NCBI GenBank assembly: GCA_035627835.1
Contig: DASPKX010000147.1
Span: 8,964 to 72,963 of the forward strand
Source of the DNA: Candidatus Methylomirabilota bacterium
Lineage (GTDB): Bacteria > Verrucomicrobiota > Verrucomicrobiia > Limisphaerales > SXQI01
Length of the DNA stretch: 64,000 bases
Reading direction: 5' to 3'
Shown here: one piece after another, positions 8,099-15,590 of the stretch
Numbering within the stretch: the stretch's first letter is position 1
How the letters are laid out: each line of letters opens with the position of its first letter
Position numbers and translations under genes: made by a program
Notes under the pieces: generated by a model
What the model was told of the DNA's origin: nothing
Databases searched by the model: none
What the model saw: only the letters and a program-made list of their open reading frames with translations

Positions 8099-9187
8099 TT
8101 AAGCTTTACGGACGCCGAGGCCGAGGGTCTGTTGGCAGTACTTGATGCTGCGTTCGAGTTGCTGCTTTTGGTACTCTTGCTCCGCAACTTTGCGATCGCC
8201 CTGGGGCTGGAAGCTGTCCATCGCTTTACCGCGTTTGGCCAGAGCGACGAACTTTGCGAAATCCGCTGCTTTAACTTTCGCGTAAGGTGGCCAGAACTCG
8301 GATTTGAGGTAAGGGAATGGGCGGGCGAAGCCGGAAATGATTTCCAATTGAACGGGGCATTCAGGAGCCAGTTCTTTCAGGCGAGCCATATACTTCTTCC
8401 AATCGACGAGGCCATCACCCATGGCTGTCCACTGCACGGATGCGCCTTCGGGTGTCTCCCAGATCATGGAGTCGCGGATACCGGAAGTGACGGCGTATTT
8501 GCCGAGGACTTCCAAGTTGACCATTGGATCTTCAAGTGTCCAGGTGGCGTTGCCTGAGTCGATAGTGCAACCGACGTAATCGGCTCCCGCTTCTTCGATC
8601 AGTTCGACCAACTCCCAGCCTTGCATGTCGCCAGCGTGGTTTTCGATGGCAATTTTCACGCCGGCGTCTTTCGCCTGCGAGCGGACCGCTTTGCAGACCT
8701 TCACTACTTCCTTCATTCGGGTGTAGATGCCGCCTTCAGCTTTGCGGTCATCTGCGCTGCCGAGGAAACAGCGGGCGACCGGAGAACCGAGAGCTTTGGC
8801 CACGCGAATGGTCAGGCCGAGAAGCTCTTCAGCGCTGCCCCACTTCTTGTTGAACATGCGGGAGCTTTCGCAAATCCCGCCGGTGCCCACATGAACCTCG
8901 AGCCCCAAATCCGCGGCTTTCTTCTTGAGATCCTTGAGGTAGCTCTCGCTGTGGTTCTCGTAAACATCGAGGTCCGAGAAGAAGACCATGTCCACCTTCT
9001 GCGCGGCCGCATATTCCATCAGTTGCGGCGCTTTCCACCCGAGGGCGCGGATGGAGAAGTTGTCGAAACCGAGCTTGGTTCCCTTGCCCGATTGCGCGAG
9101 GGCAGCGGGCGAGGAGAGGGCAAGCCCCGCTCCAGCTAAAGCGACAGATTTGATAAACTCCCGGCGAGAAGGCGCGAATGAATTCAT
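8099..9187 (-). CDS. Tat-exported sugar phosphate isomerase/epimerase (xylose-isomerase-like TIM barrel)
   Basis: Tat signal [18 protein letters not shown]...ALAQ. Family motifs [15 protein letters not shown]-x-VDW and LEIISG. Start moved to ATG 9187. Confidence 0.85.
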
Positions 9188-11751: not shown

Positions 11752-11806
11752 AGGATGCCAGCCTTTATCAGGGTGTTGGGGAAATGACCGCCGAAGGGGG
11801 CCCCGC

Positions 11807-11844
11807 GAGCAACGGCAAGTGTTACTTGTCAGAGAGATAACCCC
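11807..11844 (-). repeat. Degenerate copy of the transposase-upstream element end
   Basis: 11807-11829 GAGCAACGGCAAGTGTTACTTGT matches 13837-13859 at 21/23 positions and continues to ...ATAACCCC, like ...TTGACCCC. Confidence 0.6.
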
Positions 11845-11987
11845 GTGGACGTCTTACTGTTCCTTGGTGCTTGGAAATTAATCGTGCTTCAGTTTTCTTT
11901 TTAACATGTCCATGGAAACAGTCGCGGCTATTTGCGGTGCGGTGGCCGGTGCGATTGCCACGGTTCTACTCGACGAGAAGCGCCAAT

Positions 11988-12009
11988 GGGGTCAACTCTT
12001 AACATTTAA
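11988..12009 (+). repeat. 22-bp element end, extra copy
   Basis: GGGGTCAACTCTTAACATTTAA, identical to 12806-12827. Confidence 0.92.
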
Positions 12010-12032
12010 AAGCAAACAAACAACGATCGAAT

Positions 12033-12578
12033 ATGAGACTATTACTACTCTCTGTGTCAGGGCTGCTTATAGTTGTTTGCAACGCGCAGGCTCAGTCTTC
12101 AGGGGTCAGGTTCGAGACGATGATCCCTGGCTTAGTGGACGCGCCAGTGTTACGTCCAGGTGGTGAAGGGGCGGGAGTTGGCTACACAGCTGAGTTGGTG
12201 GTGCTTACCGGTGGAAGTGCCACAGTGCTTACTCCTGTGACAACTTTCAAGAGCTCAAGTCCTATGGATGTGCCTTACGTTAACCCAATTGATGTGCAGA
12301 TTCCAGGAGGGCTGCCGGGGCAGCAGGTGACGCTTGCCTTTCGTGCATATGAGTCGGCTGCGCAGTCTTACAATACGGCAGCTTCGACGACATTGTTTCT
12401 ACATGGACAATCCTCGCCAGTTACAGTTACTTTACGATCGGCAGATCAGGGCCCTGTTGAATTAGTCGGCCTTCGGGGATTTGTGCTAACAGTGCCTGAA
12501 CCATCAGTTGTCTCAGCAGCCTTCTTGGGGATTGCTCTTATTGCTACTCGGTTCCGCACGGGCTTCCTTCGGATCTAA
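12033..12578 (+). CDS. PEP-CTERM surface protein
   Basis: N-terminal signal peptide (MRLLLLSVSGLLIVVCNAQAQ). C-terminal VPEPS, then a hydrophobic segment and basic tail (TRFR). Confidence 0.88.
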   Translation: MRLLLLSVSGLLIVVCNAQAQSSGVRFETMIPGLVDAPVLRPGGEGAGVGYTAELVVLTGGSATVLTPVTTFKSSSPMDVPYVNPIDVQIPGGLPGQQVTLAFRAYESAAQSYNTAASTTLFLHGQSSPVTVTLRSADQGPVELVGLRGFVLTVPEPSVVSAAFLGIALIATRFRTGFLRI

Positions 12579-12588
12579 GCTTACAAGA

Positions 12589-12620
12589 GTCGTTAGAAGC
12601 GGCCCGCCGCGCCTAACGAC
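12589..12620. terminator. Hairpin downstream of the PEP-CTERM gene
   Basis: GTCGTTAG...CTAACGAC 8-bp stem with an inner GCGG/CCGC pair, ~10 bp after the stop codon. No U-tract. Confidence 0.35.
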
Positions 12621-12767
12621 CCTGATCTAGTCCGGATTGGTTCTGCGGGTTGTCATCTAGTTAATCGACCCCACCTCTCCTTGGCTAAGGTGATAAGAGG
12701 CCCCGCTTCCGGTGTGCACCAGCGTTCGCGCGCGGACGCGATAACCTTTCAGGCCGACCGGAGCTGA

Positions 12768-12817
12768 AGTGTTCGCCAGTGGGGTCAACTCTAGTGTTCG
12801 CCAGTGGGGTCAACTCT
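12768..12817 (+). repeat. Perfect 25-bp tandem duplication covering flank plus element end
   Basis: AGTGTTCGCCAGTGGGGTCAACTCT occurs twice (12768-12792, 12793-12817). Confidence 0.92.
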
Positions 12818-13873
12818 TAACATTTAACAGATGCTTCATTTGTTTGAGCTTCTGCTGCTCCTCTGGTGATTTGTTTAACACTGCTTCGTATCGTTTTAAG
12901 CACATCGTCAGCGAAGCGCCACTGCCCAGCCCAGCCCCTTTGACCAGTTCCGCAGTCGCAAACCCGCCTTCCTTCCGGGCCAGCCACAGAGCCCTGTTGC
13001 GTGATCGGTCTCCATGCCGCTGGCAAAGCTCCTCCCATTTGCCTCCCCCAACACGCTCCGCTGCTTGCACAATCTTGTCCCAAGAGAGAGCGACCCTCTC
13101 CGCAGCGCTTTCCGCCGCGCCCGCAATGGGGTTTCCTAGAGCTTGCGCGCGCACCTGAGCCCACGGTGACTCGATGATCTCGTCTTTTATAACACTCTCG
13201 ACATAGGCGCGGTAATTGTCGGCGGCCAATGCCCTGCGACCGCCGCCGAGCGCCAGCACCGAGTCACGGCAGAGCCATGCAGGCGCTGGCGCCCGTCCGA
13301 TATATGCCCGATATGAACTCCACGGAAACTCCTCCAACTCTCGCAGGCGCAGCTCCGTCTGCCCAGGGTTCGGGCTTCCGGCTCCTATCTTGCGGCCTCG
13401 CTGGCTTTGCTTGCTCAAGCCCAGGCGCGCCACCCGCACTGGGTTCAAGTGGAGGTATCGGCTCAAGGCCAACCCCCACTGCAACGGCTCCACAAGAATG
13501 GATTTAAAGCGGCCCTGAAACAGGTGCCCGGAGCGCCTGTGCTTGCGGTTAAACCACACACTATAGCTGACGTTCAGCCATTGGCAGGCGCGCCCAAGGT
13601 TTGCGCGGCGTGTCTCCAGCAGCAGGTGGTAATGGTTGTCCATCAGCACATACGCGTGAATAAGCAGGTCAAAGCGGTTCGGAAGCTCAGCAAGGAGTCC
13701 GAGAAAATGAAGGCGATCGACGTTGGTGCGGAAGATTGGACGCCGCTCATTGCCACGCGCAGTCACATGATGCCACGCTCCCGCTCTTTCCATTCGCCGC
13801 TGCCGCGCCATTGGCCAGCAGCTTGTGCCCGCCAACGAGCAAGGGCAAGTGTTAATTGTTAAGAGTTGACCCC
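12806..13873 (-). mobile_element. Y1/HUH transposase element bounded by 22-bp inverted repeats
   Basis: Left end GGGGTCAACTCTTAACATTTAA (12806-12827) and right end TTAATTGTTAAGAGTTGACCCC (13852-13873) match 21/22 as inverted repeats and enclose a single transposase gene. Confidence 0.85.
12810..13811 (-). CDS. RAYT-like Y1 transposase with C-terminal DnaA-C-like helical extension
   Basis: HHVTARGNERRPIF, HUH motif MDNHYHLL, GHLFQGRFKS, catalytic Tyr in RYLHLNP and WSSY. Start ATG 13811. The stop codon lies within the left inverted repeat. Confidence 0.93.
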   Translation of the reverse strand: MARQRRMERAGAWHHVTARGNERRPIFRTNVDRLHFLGLLAELPNRFDLLIHAYVLMDNHYHLLLETRRANLGRACQWLNVSYSVWFNRKHRRSGHLFQGRFKSILVEPLQWGLALSRYLHLNPVRVARLGLSKQSQRGRKIGAGSPNPGQTELRLRELEEFPWSSYRAYIGRAPAPAWLCRDSVLALGGGRRALAADNYRAYVESVIKDEIIESPWAQVRAQALGNPIAGAAESAAERVALSWDKIVQAAERVGGGKWEELCQRHGDRSRNRALWLARKEGGFATAELVKGAGLGSGASLTMCLKRYEAVLNKSPEEQQKLKQMKHLLNVKS

Positions 13874-14111
13874 TTCTGTTGGACAAAGTCCTGCTCAGTG
13901 GTGATGTCGAAGTACTCGGACATTGAAGCTCTCCAGAGGTATCTGCGGCCTTCGAAAAAAAGCGATGCTTTTTGCTTTTGGTCCATAGCACCGGATTCAA
14001 CGACGAACCCTTCGAAACGAGTTGGGCGCTTCAGAATGACTAAGTCAGAGGCCATATGCTAACTTTTCTGCTCCAATTGCCGGTCCAATGGGGTCCATTG
14101 CTCCAAATGCC

Positions 14112-14342
14112 GTCAACTCTTAACATTTAACAGATGCTTCATTTGTTTGAGCTTCTGCTGCTCCTCTGGTGACTTGTTTAATACTGCTTCGTATCGTTTT
14201 AAGCACATCGTCAGCGAAGCGCCACTGCCGAGCCCCGCCCCTTTGACCAGTTCCGCAGTCGCGAACCCGCCTTCCTTTCGGGCCAGCCACAGCGCCCTGT
14301 CCCGTGATCGGTCTCCATGGCGCTGGCAAAGCTCCTCCCATT
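14112..14342 (-). pseudogene. Truncated second copy of the transposase 3' end plus element end
   Basis: 231 bp aligning without gaps to 12809-13039 with about 10 substitutions (manual count). Confidence 0.9.
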
Positions 14343-14447
14343 AATGGTCCTGGGGCAGAAGGCCGACGCAAAACGGCTTGGCATCAACGGACGTACGCCG
14401 GTCGAGTGGGGCACTGGAAAGTCGCGCGACCGCGAGTATCTTATCGC

Positions 14448-15590
14448 ATGGCGGTGGGGACAACGGATAAACCGAAACGGAAACGCTCAACCCTCCCCAA
14501 ATCCCGCAAACTCTCCCGCGACGCTCAGCCGCAACCGCTGACTTCCAACCTGCCGCTGACGAACTCGCAGATTGCGGAGCTTCTCGCTTTGGAGGGAGAA
14601 AAGGCGGAAGGGCATGTTCGCAAAGCTCTCTACCGGGCGGCCCATGAGGCGTTTGTTTGGCCGGAGGAAGCGGCGCTCCTGGTCGCGCACGAGCAACCGC
14701 TCACTCAATTGCCTGCTGTAGGCCCATTCATCGCGAAGACCATTAAGGCGTGGGTGGAAGCTCCGCCAACGATTCCCGAACCGCCAGTCACGCGGCGGCA
14801 GTTTATCACCCTGGCCGAAGCTCGCCGGGTCCTAGCAGCGCATCCTTCCTGGCGCGACCGCTGCAAGGGTGATCTCCAGATGCACAGCACGTGGAGCGAT
14901 GGCGCCGGGAGCGTGAGCGACATGGCGCTGGAAGGGATGCGGCGCGGCTATGAGTACATCTGCATCACGGATCACACGAAGGGACTGAAGATCGCTGGCG
15001 GTTGCGATGAATCGGAGATCGCTCAGCAGGCTGCGGAGATCGGGGCGGTCAACGCGGAGTTCAAGCGGGCGAAGAAGAACTTTCGCGTGCTGCATGGGGT
15101 GGAGATGAATTTGAGCCCCGACGGCTCTGGCGATATGGAACCAGCCGCGTTGAGGCAGCTGGATCTCGTGCTCGGCTCTTTTCATTCCGCGCTTCGGGTG
15201 AAAGGGGATCAAACGGAGCGTTACATCGCGGGGTTGCGCAACCCGCACATTCAGGTTCTCGGGCATCCCAAAGGGCGGGTTTATAACTACCGCGAAGGTC
15301 TGGTGGCCGATTGGCGGCGAGTGTTTGCCGAAGCTGCCAGACTTGGAAAAGCGGTGGAAATTGATGGGTATTCGGACCGGCAGGATATGCAACTGGACTT
15401 GCTGGAGATCGCGCGCGAGGAGGGAGTGCGGGTTTCCATGGGCAGCGACGCCCACGCGCCGGGGCAAATGTTGTTCCTGGAGATTTCGCTGGCCCTCGCG
15501 TGCCTGGCTAAAATTCCCGCTGAGCGGATCATTAACTTCATGCCCCATGAGGAACTCGCAGCGTGGGTGGAGCAAGTTCGGGTCGGCTGA
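14448..15590 (+). CDS. PHP-domain protein with PolX-like N-terminal HhH region, no polymerase core
   Basis: PHP motifs DLQMHSTWSDG, ITDH, GSFH, GHP and GSDAH. N-terminal NSQIAELL...LPAVGPFIAKTI resembles the PolX 8-kDa/HhH domain. Confidence 0.85.
   Translation: MAVGTTDKPKRKRSTLPKSRKLSRDAQPQPLTSNLPLTNSQIAELLALEGEKAEGHVRKALYRAAHEAFVWPEEAALLVAHEQPLTQLPAVGPFIAKTIKAWVEAPPTIPEPPVTRRQFITLAEARRVLAAHPSWRDRCKGDLQMHSTWSDGAGSVSDMALEGMRRGYEYICITDHTKGLKIAGGCDESEIAQQAAEIGAVNAEFKRAKKNFRVLHGVEMNLSPDGSGDMEPAALRQLDLVLGSFHSALRVKGDQTERYIAGLRNPHIQVLGHPKGRVYNYREGLVADWRRVFAEAARLGKAVEIDGYSDRQDMQLDLLEIAREEGVRVSMGSDAHAPGQMLFLEISLALACLAKIPAERIINFMPHEELAAWVEQVRVG

Follow-up and report, generated by a model that had tools for sequence, protein, structure and literature searches.

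A TIRtron with a RAYT-like HUH/Y1 nuclease and a predicted DnaA domain IV-type tail, and a proposed mechanism of end recognition

Introduction

The TIRYT/TIRtron class, i.e. RAYT-like Y1 genes bracketed by terminal inverted repeats, was described from a genome survey by Di Nocera, De Gregorio and Rocco (2013, BMC Genomics 14:522, PMC3733652), who gave the end motif as GGGGWSAS and already recorded the overlap of a TIRtron repeat with the 3' end of its gene. Enzymes with a Bac_DnaA_C-like tail were subsequently assigned to TnpA-REP subclass 2.1, subgroup 2.1.2, by Quentin, Siguier, Chandler and Fichant (2018, PMC6006769). TIRYT/TIRtron, TnpA-REP subclass 2.1.2 and RAYT Group 1 of Bertels, Gallie and Rainey (2017, PMC5581495) are one and the same class. 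Copy number is generally low for Class 2 Y1 genes (PMC6006769). Among the groups clustering within the RAYT clade, RAYT Group 1 (equal to subclass 2.1) is the most IS-like, with near-identical duplicates in 6.3% of its members and some members on plasmids (PMC5581495). In the 2013 and 2018 papers the DnaA box was compared with the repeat tip only; subrepeats and co-evolution are not described there. The hairpin-and-guide system of IS200/IS605 and REP enzymes is so far the sole known route by which HUH transposases recognise their ends.

Here we analyse a locus in the window, i.e. the whole 64,000-nt stretch covering positions 8,964 to 72,963 of contig DASPKX010000147.1 (assembly GCA_035627835.1, Candidatus Methylomirabilota bacterium). 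The novelty implied by a first-pass annotation of this locus is not supported. Judged from its sequence the element is not new and has the architecture of the published TIRYT/TIRtron class, the ends (PMC3733652) as well as the subclass 2.1 Bac_DnaA_C tail (PMC6006769) having been described before. What the comparison with its relatives adds is a probable, concrete mechanism of end recognition.

Results

The features of the locus are listed below by window coordinates and strand.

12806..13873, minus strand: whole TIRtron element, 1068 bp tip to tip
12810..13811, minus strand: TIRYT gene, 333 aa plus TGA (ORF; Pfam Y1_Tnp match)
13422..13811, minus strand: HUH/Y1 catalytic domain, aa 1-130 (Pfam Y1_Tnp, aa 14-108; predicted model)
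12822..13082, minus strand: DnaA domain IV-like helix-turn-helix, aa 244-330 (profiles and predicted structure)
12806..12834, plus strand: gene-distal (left) inverted-repeat arm, encoding L-L-N-V-K-S and the stop (repeat search)
13845..13873, minus strand: gene-proximal (right) inverted-repeat arm (repeat search)
12768..12792, plus strand: tandem copy, a scar at the element end (repeat family D2, 100% identity)
14112..14342, plus strand: truncated second copy, 231 nt, 96% identical
11988..12009, plus strand: solo arm, 22/22 identical to the left arm
11806..11846, plus strand: remnant of a right arm, decayed, plus about 14 nt of adjoining leader

The two arms (12806-12834 and 13845-13873) are 29 nt long, lie 1010 nt apart and are identical at 26 of 29 positions (90% complementary). 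The first-pass annotation had reported inverted repeats with 21/22 identity around a 333-aa Y1 transposase. Both observations hold: the repeats extend to 23/24 in the outermost 24 nt (read by eye, one mismatch), and the protein between them is a single ORF with a Pfam Y1_Tnp match at E = 3e-9. The left arm begins with the tip GGGGTCA-AC-TCT (12806-12817), which is adjoined by the subrepeats TTAACAT and TTAACAG (12817-12830); in the right arm the same tip is followed by TTAACAA and TTAACAC (13849-13862). Compared with the published GGGGWSAS, the window motif GGGGTCAA matches at 7 of 8 bases. Its eighth base, A, is the minority state, present in 20% of family arms, while the consensus S covers about 75%.

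The start codon of the TIRYT gene is located 38 nt past position 24 of the gene-proximal arm. At the other end the downstream arm overlaps the gene, so that the repeat dictates the C-terminal peptide and the stop codon. The left arm supplies the final codons (L-L-N-V-K-S-stop), as had been noticed for LNVKS-stop, and the TGA is the complement of 12810-12812, corresponding to repeat positions 5-7 within the tip GGGGTCA. The early remark that the repeats contain no internal hairpin was likewise borne out by single-arm ssDNA folding, in which three of four folds were no better than shuffles (z = +1.4, +0.4 and +0.1); the exception is one right-arm strand with its flank (z = -2.5, -5.5 kcal/mol). 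No target-site duplication was seen at the window element, and across the family 93 of 110 loci have no matching flanks, the others showing flank matches of 2-4 nt, which is chance level. No convincing sigma-70-like promoter match was found for the window copy (score 7).

The catalytic domain carries the HUH motif H60-Y61-H62 and the motif Y-x3-NP as Y119-LHL-N123-P124, Y119 being the catalytic residue. An alignment of 32 homologues shows no variation at H60, H62, Y119 and N123 and very little at P124. Downstream of the core the serine motif W164-S165-S166-Y167 is invariant in the homologue alignment as well; a serine-containing motif past the core domain has been described as a subclass feature (PMC6006769). 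The predicted model of the catalytic domain (pLDDT mostly >90) also matches IS608 and ISDra2 TnpA in Foldseek, and the top match for the model of the whole protein is E. coli TnpA-REP (4er8).

Beyond the Y1 core of about 130 aa the protein continues for about 200 aa. Here a disordered linker (aa 225-238) is predicted to separate a helical middle region from a helical C-terminal domain of about 90 aa. The helical extension of about 100 aa proposed in the first-pass annotation was correct in its helical nature and too short in its length. A single-sequence search of PDB sequences gave a chance haemoglobin match only, and profiles were needed. The family profile A4 matches DnaA with E = 6e-14 and profile A1 with E = 2e-5; Of 69 family members, 34 match Pfam Bac_DnaA_C. 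The C-terminal sequence of the window protein is itself below Pfam Bac_DnaA_C significance and is assigned through the family profile and the fold only. For the model of its C-terminal 100 aa (pLDDT 90.5) the nine best Foldseek matches are all DnaA chains, the top four (3pvp, 8btg, 1j1v) with query TM-scores of 0.75-0.78 and rmsd of 1.8-2.7 Å; E. coli 1j1v and M. tuberculosis 3pvp reach 0.77-0.78. The suspected resemblance to the C-terminal helix-turn-helix of DnaA is thereby upheld, and the tail is predicted from profiles and models to be a true DnaA domain IV fold, with a TM-score of about 0.8 to complexes of DnaA with DNA and with its recognition helix at about aa 297-314. The DnaA match is limited to domain IV, the remaining protein consisting of the HUH domain and the helical middle region. 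Unlike DnaA, TIRYT lacks the AAA+ module (domain III) and any other DnaA domain, and we do not regard it as a member of the DnaA family.

The element resembles the TIRYT class in several traits, i.e. a Y1 enzyme of the RAYT-like kind that carries the HUH and Y-x3-NP motifs, terminal inverted repeats that bracket the gene in place of REP hairpins, a low copy number with few solo or grouped repeats and a patchy taxonomic spread, and a tail related to Bac_DnaA_C (the class criterion being Bac_DnaA_C, HTH_23 or HTH_28). With E. coli TnpA-REP and the REPtrons of groups 2 and 3 it shares the HUH/Y1 fold, Y-x3-NP, cognate repeats flanking the gene in inverted orientation and short non-autonomous repeat units dispersed in the genome. 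TIRYT repeats also have a conserved CT at positions 11-12, reminiscent of the CT at which TnpA-REP enzymes cleave (PMC8266576). In contrast to REPtrons it has neither a REP hairpin nor a GTAG guide, its protein, of twice the length, includes the DnaA-like domain, and its repeat copies number about a dozen in the window genome versus hundreds. The NCBIfam model REP_Tyr_transpos (NF047646) gives 46.2 bits, under the cut-off of 80, and membership in REPtron groups 2 and 3 is rejected.

The Pfam Y1_Tnp match and the structural similarity to IS608 and ISDra2 TnpA would also suit an ordinary element of the IS200/IS605 type, in which one strand carries the subterminal hairpins and the guide sequences. 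Such elements share with ours the HUH/Y1 core and the lack of a target-site duplication. The anatomy of the element contradicts this scenario. Its arms form no significant hairpins and its ends are inverted copies, whereas IS200/IS605 ends are subterminal hairpins on the same strand, read with 4-nt guides. IS200/IS605 proteins measure about 130-155 aa and have no helix-turn-helix; the TIRYT protein is twice as long, with a class 2 Y-x3-NP motif and such a domain, and its closest structure is TnpA-REP, not IS608 TnpA. We consider this explanation highly improbable and reject it. A DDE-type element is rejected too, the protein containing no such domain.

The family is very large. At least 4900 full-length homologues of about 349 aa were counted in 90% clusters, and 12,900 representatives at E <= 1e-10; the nearest relatives of the window protein are only about 50% identical. 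Our comparison covered 140 homologous, full-length loci drawn from many phyla; a flanking inverted repeat with an alignment score of at least 34 is present at 116 of them. Shuffled controls in a pilot of 41 loci never scored above 30, which rejects a chance inverted repeat. In the consensus from 112 anchored loci the arms agree in at least 75% of loci out to position 24, and the median tip-to-tip length in the family is 1056 nt. The end repeat measures 24-27 nt and has two modules. The tip, GGGGTCA-NN-TCT, is conserved family-wide; the module after it, a pair of 7-bp direct subrepeats, is lineage-specific (here TTAACA-N, in some relatives TTGACA or TCGACA). A stop codon within the arm is found at 92 of the 112 anchored loci and is the TGA at repeat positions 5-7 at 46 of them. 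A good promoter match with its -35 box inside a subrepeat is present in the upstream arm of 50 of 112 relatives.

The scar at 12768..12792 is 25 nt long and repeats 13 nt of flanking sequence together with nt 1-12 of the repeat tip. Among 212 family arms, 26 show comparable tandem duplications anchored at the tip, against about 2 that we estimate to arise by chance (an exact 6-mer match within some 40 positions of each arm). We read these duplications as putative footprints of nicking. Position 7 is the end point in 17 of the 29 duplication events and position 12 in 3, that of the window among them. Since the junctions fall at both 7 and 12, the nick site is not fixed by them.

Further copies point to past activity. 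The truncated copy at 14112..14342 corresponds to the arm from position 4 onwards and the final 75 codons (one TAA stop); because the similarity begins at repeat position 4, just the first three G are absent. On contigs C104 and C149 there are two mini-elements with internal deletions, in which both arms are retained. The C104 mini-element is 80 nt long and folds as a long hairpin (-14.8 kcal/mol, z = -3.0). Genome-wide there are about a dozen arm copies, including several solo ends, and one intact element. None of 13 genomes of the same taxonomic family has an orthologue of the element. The neighbouring PHP-domain gene has orthologues in two same-family genomes (56-62% identity), with which no other neighbour gene is shared, so that the comparison yields no insertion boundary. 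Taken together, the locus appears to be one intact TIRtron of about 1.07 kb whose only gene encodes TIRYT and which is mobile or was so recently.

A domesticated, immobile RAYT-like gene, whose arms serve its own product as operator or regulatory sites, or are seeds of REP-like repeats, in place of being transposon ends, would agree with the single intact copy in the genome and with the low copy number usual for Class 2 Y1 genes (PMC6006769). An operator role would also be plausible in view of those 50 of 112 relatives with a promoter match and the -35 box in the subrepeat. The downstream arm, however, is kept equally well and has no obvious regulatory role, and truncated copies and two-arm mini-elements exist at other loci. 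The patchy occurrence among relatives, with no same-family orthologue, and the IS-like character of RAYT Group 1 (PMC5581495) also speak against domestication, which we regard as unlikely.

The subrepeats show co-evolution with the DnaA-like domain. Among the 15 top-ranking protein columns by mutual information with subrepeat positions, 9-12 belong to the DnaA-like domain (enrichment p = 0.003 to 5e-6), and the enrichment persists after removal of sequences with >60% identity (p = 5e-4). Branch co-change on the tree links R307 to position 23 (13 events, p = 8e-9), M303 to position 21 (19 events, p = 1e-8) and A299 to position 21 (p = 1e-5). In sister pairs with differing subrepeats the relative rate of the recognition helix is doubled (1.20 vs 0.62, p = 0.007). 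In profile alignments the co-varying recognition-helix residues correspond to DnaA D433, T435, H439 and K443, which lie at the start of helix 434-451, by which DnaA reads TnCACA in the major groove (PMC5742627); the positions aligned with these four residues may be the contacts of the reader. Residue and base correspond in a simple way: the H439-equivalent is Q or K where the base is G and M, V or A where it is A, and at the T435-equivalent S accompanies G, A accompanies A and T accompanies C. In addition, the subrepeat end ACA resembles the TnCACA half of the DnaA box. Differences from DnaA concern the site, a pair of 7-bp direct repeats as candidate in TIRYTs versus a 9-bp DnaA box, and the subrepeat specificity, which varies by lineage in TIRYTs.

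Mutual information between tip and HUH domain pointed to helix 77-86, and in the tree-aware analysis tip position 8 co-changes with E22, Q4 and V81 of the HUH domain. At the level of domains the tree-aware test gave no enrichment for tip-HUH coupling (p = 0.45), and sister pairs gave none either (p = 0.70). We keep the coupling, which concerns individual residues only, as a lead.

Discussion

Our comparison of 112 relatives provides the first computational evidence supporting that the DnaA-like tail reads both subrepeats, and the earlier suggestion that the extension may bind the repeats gains support from this residue-base co-evolution. As to the form in which the repeats would be bound, the co-evolution fits a helix reading a duplex, and a chromosomal duplex and an intrastrand stem are not told apart by it. 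Because an arm usually carries two similar subrepeats, the data are compatible with one or two reader domains per arm; in our judgement a spacing of 7 bp looks tight for two domains of the DnaA type.

We consider it probable that the element is a TIRtron in which a RAYT-like HUH/Y1 nuclease is fused to a DnaA domain IV-type helix-turn-helix, and that its ends are recognised as follows. The HUH/Y1 single-strand nuclease would be joined to the helix-turn-helix via the helical middle region and the flexible linker. The DnaA-like domain would bind the subrepeats as a duplex, either the chromosomal one or a stem formed by arm pairing in ssDNA, and this binding would place the HUH domain at the tip. 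There, Tyr119 would nick and rejoin one strand near GGGGTCA|NN or TCT|. The ends being inverted, the same reaction would be possible on opposite strands at both ends. In many relatives the inner subrepeat of the upstream arm doubles as the -35 box, and binding there would repress the gene. The predicted target preference is an A/T-rich triplet adjoining the tip. We infer each of these steps, from binding and the nick site to the choice of strand and transposition.

Duplex-bound iterons adjoining the nicked site are known from the HUH Rep origins of rolling-circle plasmids, geminiviruses and parvoviruses. The analogy with TIRtrons is a functional one, and homology is claimed for the HUH core only. 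Unlike in the mechanism proposed here for TIRYT, it is the HUH domain itself or some other domain that reads their iterons, and the process leads to replication in place of transposition.

A purely single-stranded, REPIN-like scenario would have the arms pair on one strand and the enzyme recognise the resulting stem, never duplex chromosomal ends. Such pairing would give a hairpin in the mini-elements and a panhandle in the full element, and the C104 unit indeed folds (z = -3.0). Arm complementarity is kept family-wide, and the characterised TnpA-REP and IS200/IS605 enzymes all act on folded ssDNA (PMC8266576). The arms of the full element, however, are 1 kb apart, and the co-evolution fits a duplex-reading helix, yet an intrastrand stem is equally compatible. 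Since co-evolution does not distinguish duplex from stem, this scenario overlaps with our main model. As an exclusive explanation we hold it to be rather improbable, though less so than domestication.

Conclusions

As a single instance the element is unremarkable and adds one copy to a very large family. The co-evolution signal yields a concrete and cheap hypothesis in the form of residue-to-base assignments and a candidate nick position. We tentatively suggest, at somewhat less than even confidence, that TIRYTs combine a modular, evolvable reader with a nicking domain, the reader recognising two lineage-private 7-bp iterons per end and the HUH domain reading the two variable tip bases beside the nick. 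If this modular reading is true, it would explain how several paralogues can share a genome with no cross-reaction, and TIRYTs would represent a naturally re-targetable family of single-strand nickases/transposases. If end recognition by the DnaA-like tail is confirmed, HUH transposases would have a second route to their ends, based on duplex iterons and a domain borrowed from a replication initiator.

Results

Repeat search recovered the inverted repeats that the first-pass annotation had placed around a 333-aa Y1 gene, and its stop codon within the repeat was confirmed as well. The features in the window are as follows (positions within a repeat are counted inward from the outer tip).

12806-12834 and 13845-13873: left (gene-distal) and right (gene-proximal) inverted repeat arm, 29 nt each, 90% complementary, 1010 nt between them
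12810-13811, minus strand: ORF of 333 aa
12768-12792 and 12793-12817: tip duplication of 25 nt (13 nt flank plus 12 nt tip)
11988-12009: solo left arm
11806-11846: decayed right arm
14112-14342: truncated copy, 231 nt, 96% identical

Read from the tip, the arms (GGGGTCAACTCTTAACATTTAACAGATGC and GGGGTCAACTCTTAACAATTAACACTTGC) are identical at 23 of the first 24 bases. The left arm holds the final six codons of the ORF and its TGA stop, the complement of repeat positions 5-7. Four single-strand folds were computed for the arms. Three did no better than shuffled sequence, in line with the earlier claim of no internal hairpin; the exception was one right-arm strand folded together with its flank (z = -2.5). 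A hairpin element of the IS200/IS605 type is extremely improbable.

The element is one more member of a described class and the finding is real; the earlier remark that the architecture may not be new was right. The names TIRYT for genes of this kind and TIRtron for the unit come from Di Nocera, De Gregorio and Rocco (2013), who described a common end motif GGGGWSAS, repeats that overlap the 3' end of the gene, and solo, dimeric or grouped copies of the repeat in moderate abundance (PMC3733652). Of 26 TIRYTs, Quentin, Siguier, Chandler and Fichant (2018) assigned 20 to TnpA-REP subclass 2.1, whose subgroup 2.1.2 shows C-terminal similarity to Bac_DnaA_C, HTH_23 or HTH_28 (PMC6006769). In the scheme of Bertels et al. 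(2017), subclass 2.1 is RAYT Group 1, which resembles IS elements more than any other group clustering within the RAYT clade (PMC5581495). A literature search found no biochemical study of the TIRYT class.

The architecture extends across the family. A word-indexed search yielded at least 4982 family proteins, the 120 best matches being mostly ~349 aa long and most covering ~100% of the query; 12,902 cluster representatives were found at E <= 1e-10. From genomes and metagenomes 160 loci were fetched, spanning Verrucomicrobiota, Planctomycetota, Lentisphaerota, Desulfobacterota, Nitrospirota and other phyla. An inverted repeat scoring >= 34 surrounds the gene in 116 of the 140 loci with full-length gene and flanks (shuffled controls in a pilot run: <= 30). 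In 112 tip-anchored loci the tip consensus is G-G-G-G-T-C-A-N-N-T-C-T, followed inward by two 7-bp direct subrepeats, usually with an ACA end. The two arms of a locus agree in at least 75% of loci through position 24 and at random beyond position 27. The stop codon lies within the downstream arm in 92/112 loci, 46 of them sharing the window's arrangement of TGA at positions 5-7, and the median tip-to-tip length is 1056 nt. No target-site duplication was seen in the family loci. Just beyond both tips, at positions -3 to -1, A and T predominate (A 53-61% at -3; A or T ~80% at -2 and -1), either a weakly conserved repeat extension or a target preference. The end structures of some relatives are much longer: in L081 (an Aminicenantes MAG) each end is a REPIN-like self-complementary unit with two opposed tips (GGGGTCGCGTCTACA...TGTAGACGCGACCCC), and in L099 the arms measure 72 nt.

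The N-terminal third of the protein is a Y1 HUH nuclease (Pfam Y1_Tnp, E = 3e-9), in which H60-Y61-H62, Y119-x3-N123-P124 and W164-S-S-Y167 are invariant or nearly so among 32 full-length homologues. It reaches 46 bits against NCBIfam REP_Tyr_transpos (cut-off 80) and is therefore not a canonical RAYT. In an AlphaFold model (pLDDT 86) the HUH domain is followed by a helical middle region, from which a disordered linker (aa 225-238) leads to a helical domain at the C-terminus. The model's top Foldseek match is E. coli TnpA-REP with bound REP hairpin (4er8), with IS608 and ISDra2 TnpA ranking below. The linker (window 13095-13140) is ~15 residues shorter than in homologues, with every invariant residue still present.

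By profile and predicted structure, the protein ends in a DnaA domain IV fold. The family profile built from 32 sequences matched DnaA domain IV at E = 2e-5; a profile of the final 100 residues of 69 family members matched DnaA at E = 6e-14 (8btg) and 2e-13 (1j1v), and 34 of the 69 individually matched Pfam Bac_DnaA_C. For the window's final 100 residues, modelled alone (pLDDT 90.5), each of the nine best Foldseek matches was a DnaA chain; query TM-scores were 0.75-0.78 and rmsd 1.8-2.7 A for the first four (3pvp, 8btg, 1j1v). The guess of a DnaA-like HTH in the C-terminal ~100 aa was therefore right.

Each protein column was compared with each variable repeat position across 112 loci, using the non-coding upstream arm and leaving out the C-terminal residues encoded by the downstream arm. 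Mutual information fell into two modules, subrepeats and tip. The partners of subrepeat positions 13-24 are residues 294-308 and 266-268 in the DnaA-like domain, which holds 9-12 of the top 15 columns for these positions (enrichment p = 0.003 for the upstream and 5e-6 for the downstream arm; p = 5e-4 without sequences > 60% identical). Tip positions 8-9 pair chiefly with HUH residues 77-86. A tree-aware test counted the branches on which both characters change.

Co-changes between protein residues and repeat positions
R307 / position 23: 13 co-changes, p = 8e-9
M303 / position 21: 19 co-changes, p = 1e-8
G294 / position 23: 10 co-changes, p = 2e-6
A299 / position 21: 15 co-changes, p = 1e-5
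E22 / position 8: 9 co-changes, p = 6e-7
Q4 / position 8: 8 co-changes, p = 2e-5
V81 / position 8: 9 co-changes, p = 4e-5

Among sister pairs, the relative rate of evolution of the recognition helix (aa 297-307) was 1.20 where the subrepeats differ versus 0.62 where they do not (p = 0.007); no link between tip and HUH domain was seen in these pairs (p = 0.70). HMM alignments set S297, A299, M303 and R307 against D433, T435, H439 and K443 of E. coli DnaA, at the start of helix 434-451, which enters the major groove and reads TnCACA; T435M abolishes DnaA-box binding (PMC5742627). Tabulated against each other, residues and bases resemble a simple code. At the counterpart of H439, Q/K accompanies G and M/V/A accompanies A; at that of T435, the residues S, A and T accompany the bases G, A and C, respectively. 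A299 and M303 of the window, with TTAACA subrepeats, are consistent with these pairings. There is thus good computational support for the DnaA-like domain reading the subrepeats, and weaker support for the HUH domain reading the tip. The earlier idea that the extension binds the repeats gains from this co-variation (R307/position 23, p = 8e-9).

A strong sigma-70-like promoter match occurs in the upstream arm and leader of 50/112 relatives, compared with 4/112 in the downstream-arm control; no convincing one was seen for the window copy (13811-13873; score 7). The -35 box mostly coincides with the second subrepeat (positions 19-24, 44 loci) or with a third copy, TTGACA, just inside it (positions 26-31, 19 loci). 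A distance of 5-8 nt separates the end of the -10 box from the start codon in roughly half of the strong cases, which suggests leaderless transcripts in these relatives. By binding its own upstream end, the protein could repress its own gene.

Characterised TnpA-REP enzymes cut single-stranded DNA at CT (or CA) adjoining the REP hairpin (PMC8266576); TIRYT repeat positions 11-12 are C (96%) and T (91%). An exact extra copy of an arm's own positions 2-7 lies within 45 nt outside the tip in 26/212 arms (chance expectation ~2, estimated for a 6-mer and ~40 positions per arm). Most are true tandem duplications of ~12 nt flank plus tip that recur across unrelated loci (L010-L181), with a 19-nt period in six occurrences. 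The 29 events end after position 7 (GGGGTCA|) in 17 cases and after position 12 (TCT|) in three, that of the window included. Such scars point to position 7/8 or 12/13 as a possible site at which a strand is broken or joined.

The assembly holds one intact gene copy, and remnants on further contigs of the source genome.

C104:74900-75110 (L007:2400-2610): three forward arms and one reverse arm in one intergenic gap
C149:24423-24596 (L009:2423-2596): internally deleted element, ~175 nt
C54: solo arm

The last arm pair on C104 forms an 80-nt mini-element (hairpin fold -14.8 kcal/mol); outside the tip of the reverse arm lies a 15-nt tandem duplication, ACCCTGTGGGTTCGA then ACCCTGTGGGTTCC. The C149 derivative, in which the upstream arm is joined directly to codons 284-326 and then the downstream arm, looks like a MITE-like non-autonomous copy. 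In the window's truncated copy similarity starts at repeat position 4, so that of the tip just the three leading G are missing. The window's TIRYT gene has no orthologue in 13 of 13 genomes of the same taxonomic family. Full-length relatives (42-50% identity) occur sporadically in the same order, as does one at 56% identity whose match is limited to aa 1-225, and some genomes of the order carry several diverged paralogues and pseudogenes. Remnants and patchy distribution fit a mobile element that moved and decayed here, which does not prove present activity. Between the single intact gene and these remnants, a domesticated gene with operator-like sites appears quite improbable.

The intact element, truncated copy, solo left arm and decayed right arm all lie within 2.5 kb (window 11806-14342). 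The solo arm (11988) and the element's right arm (13873) bracket an ORF (12033-12578) whose C-terminus resembles a PEP-CTERM signal by eye, with no match in Pfam; the whole could be a composite unit with a passenger gene. The long ORF (14304-15590) of a PHP-domain gene has its first codon inside the truncated copy. It is conserved against orthologues only from near residue 80, and the alignment of one orthologue crosses a stop codon before residue ~80; its real start is therefore probably further downstream, e.g. the Met near 14445.

Discussion

On sequence grounds, a mechanism in three parts is most likely: the DnaA-like domain would dock on duplex subrepeats, the HUH domain would act on the adjoining tip, and Tyr119 would nick and then rejoin one strand. 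The duplex read could belong to the chromosome at the element's end or to a stem in single-stranded DNA in which the two arms pair, and the sequence fits either. A purely single-stranded, REPIN-like mode is unlikely. The value of the finding lies in this testable model of recognition, not in the single instance.
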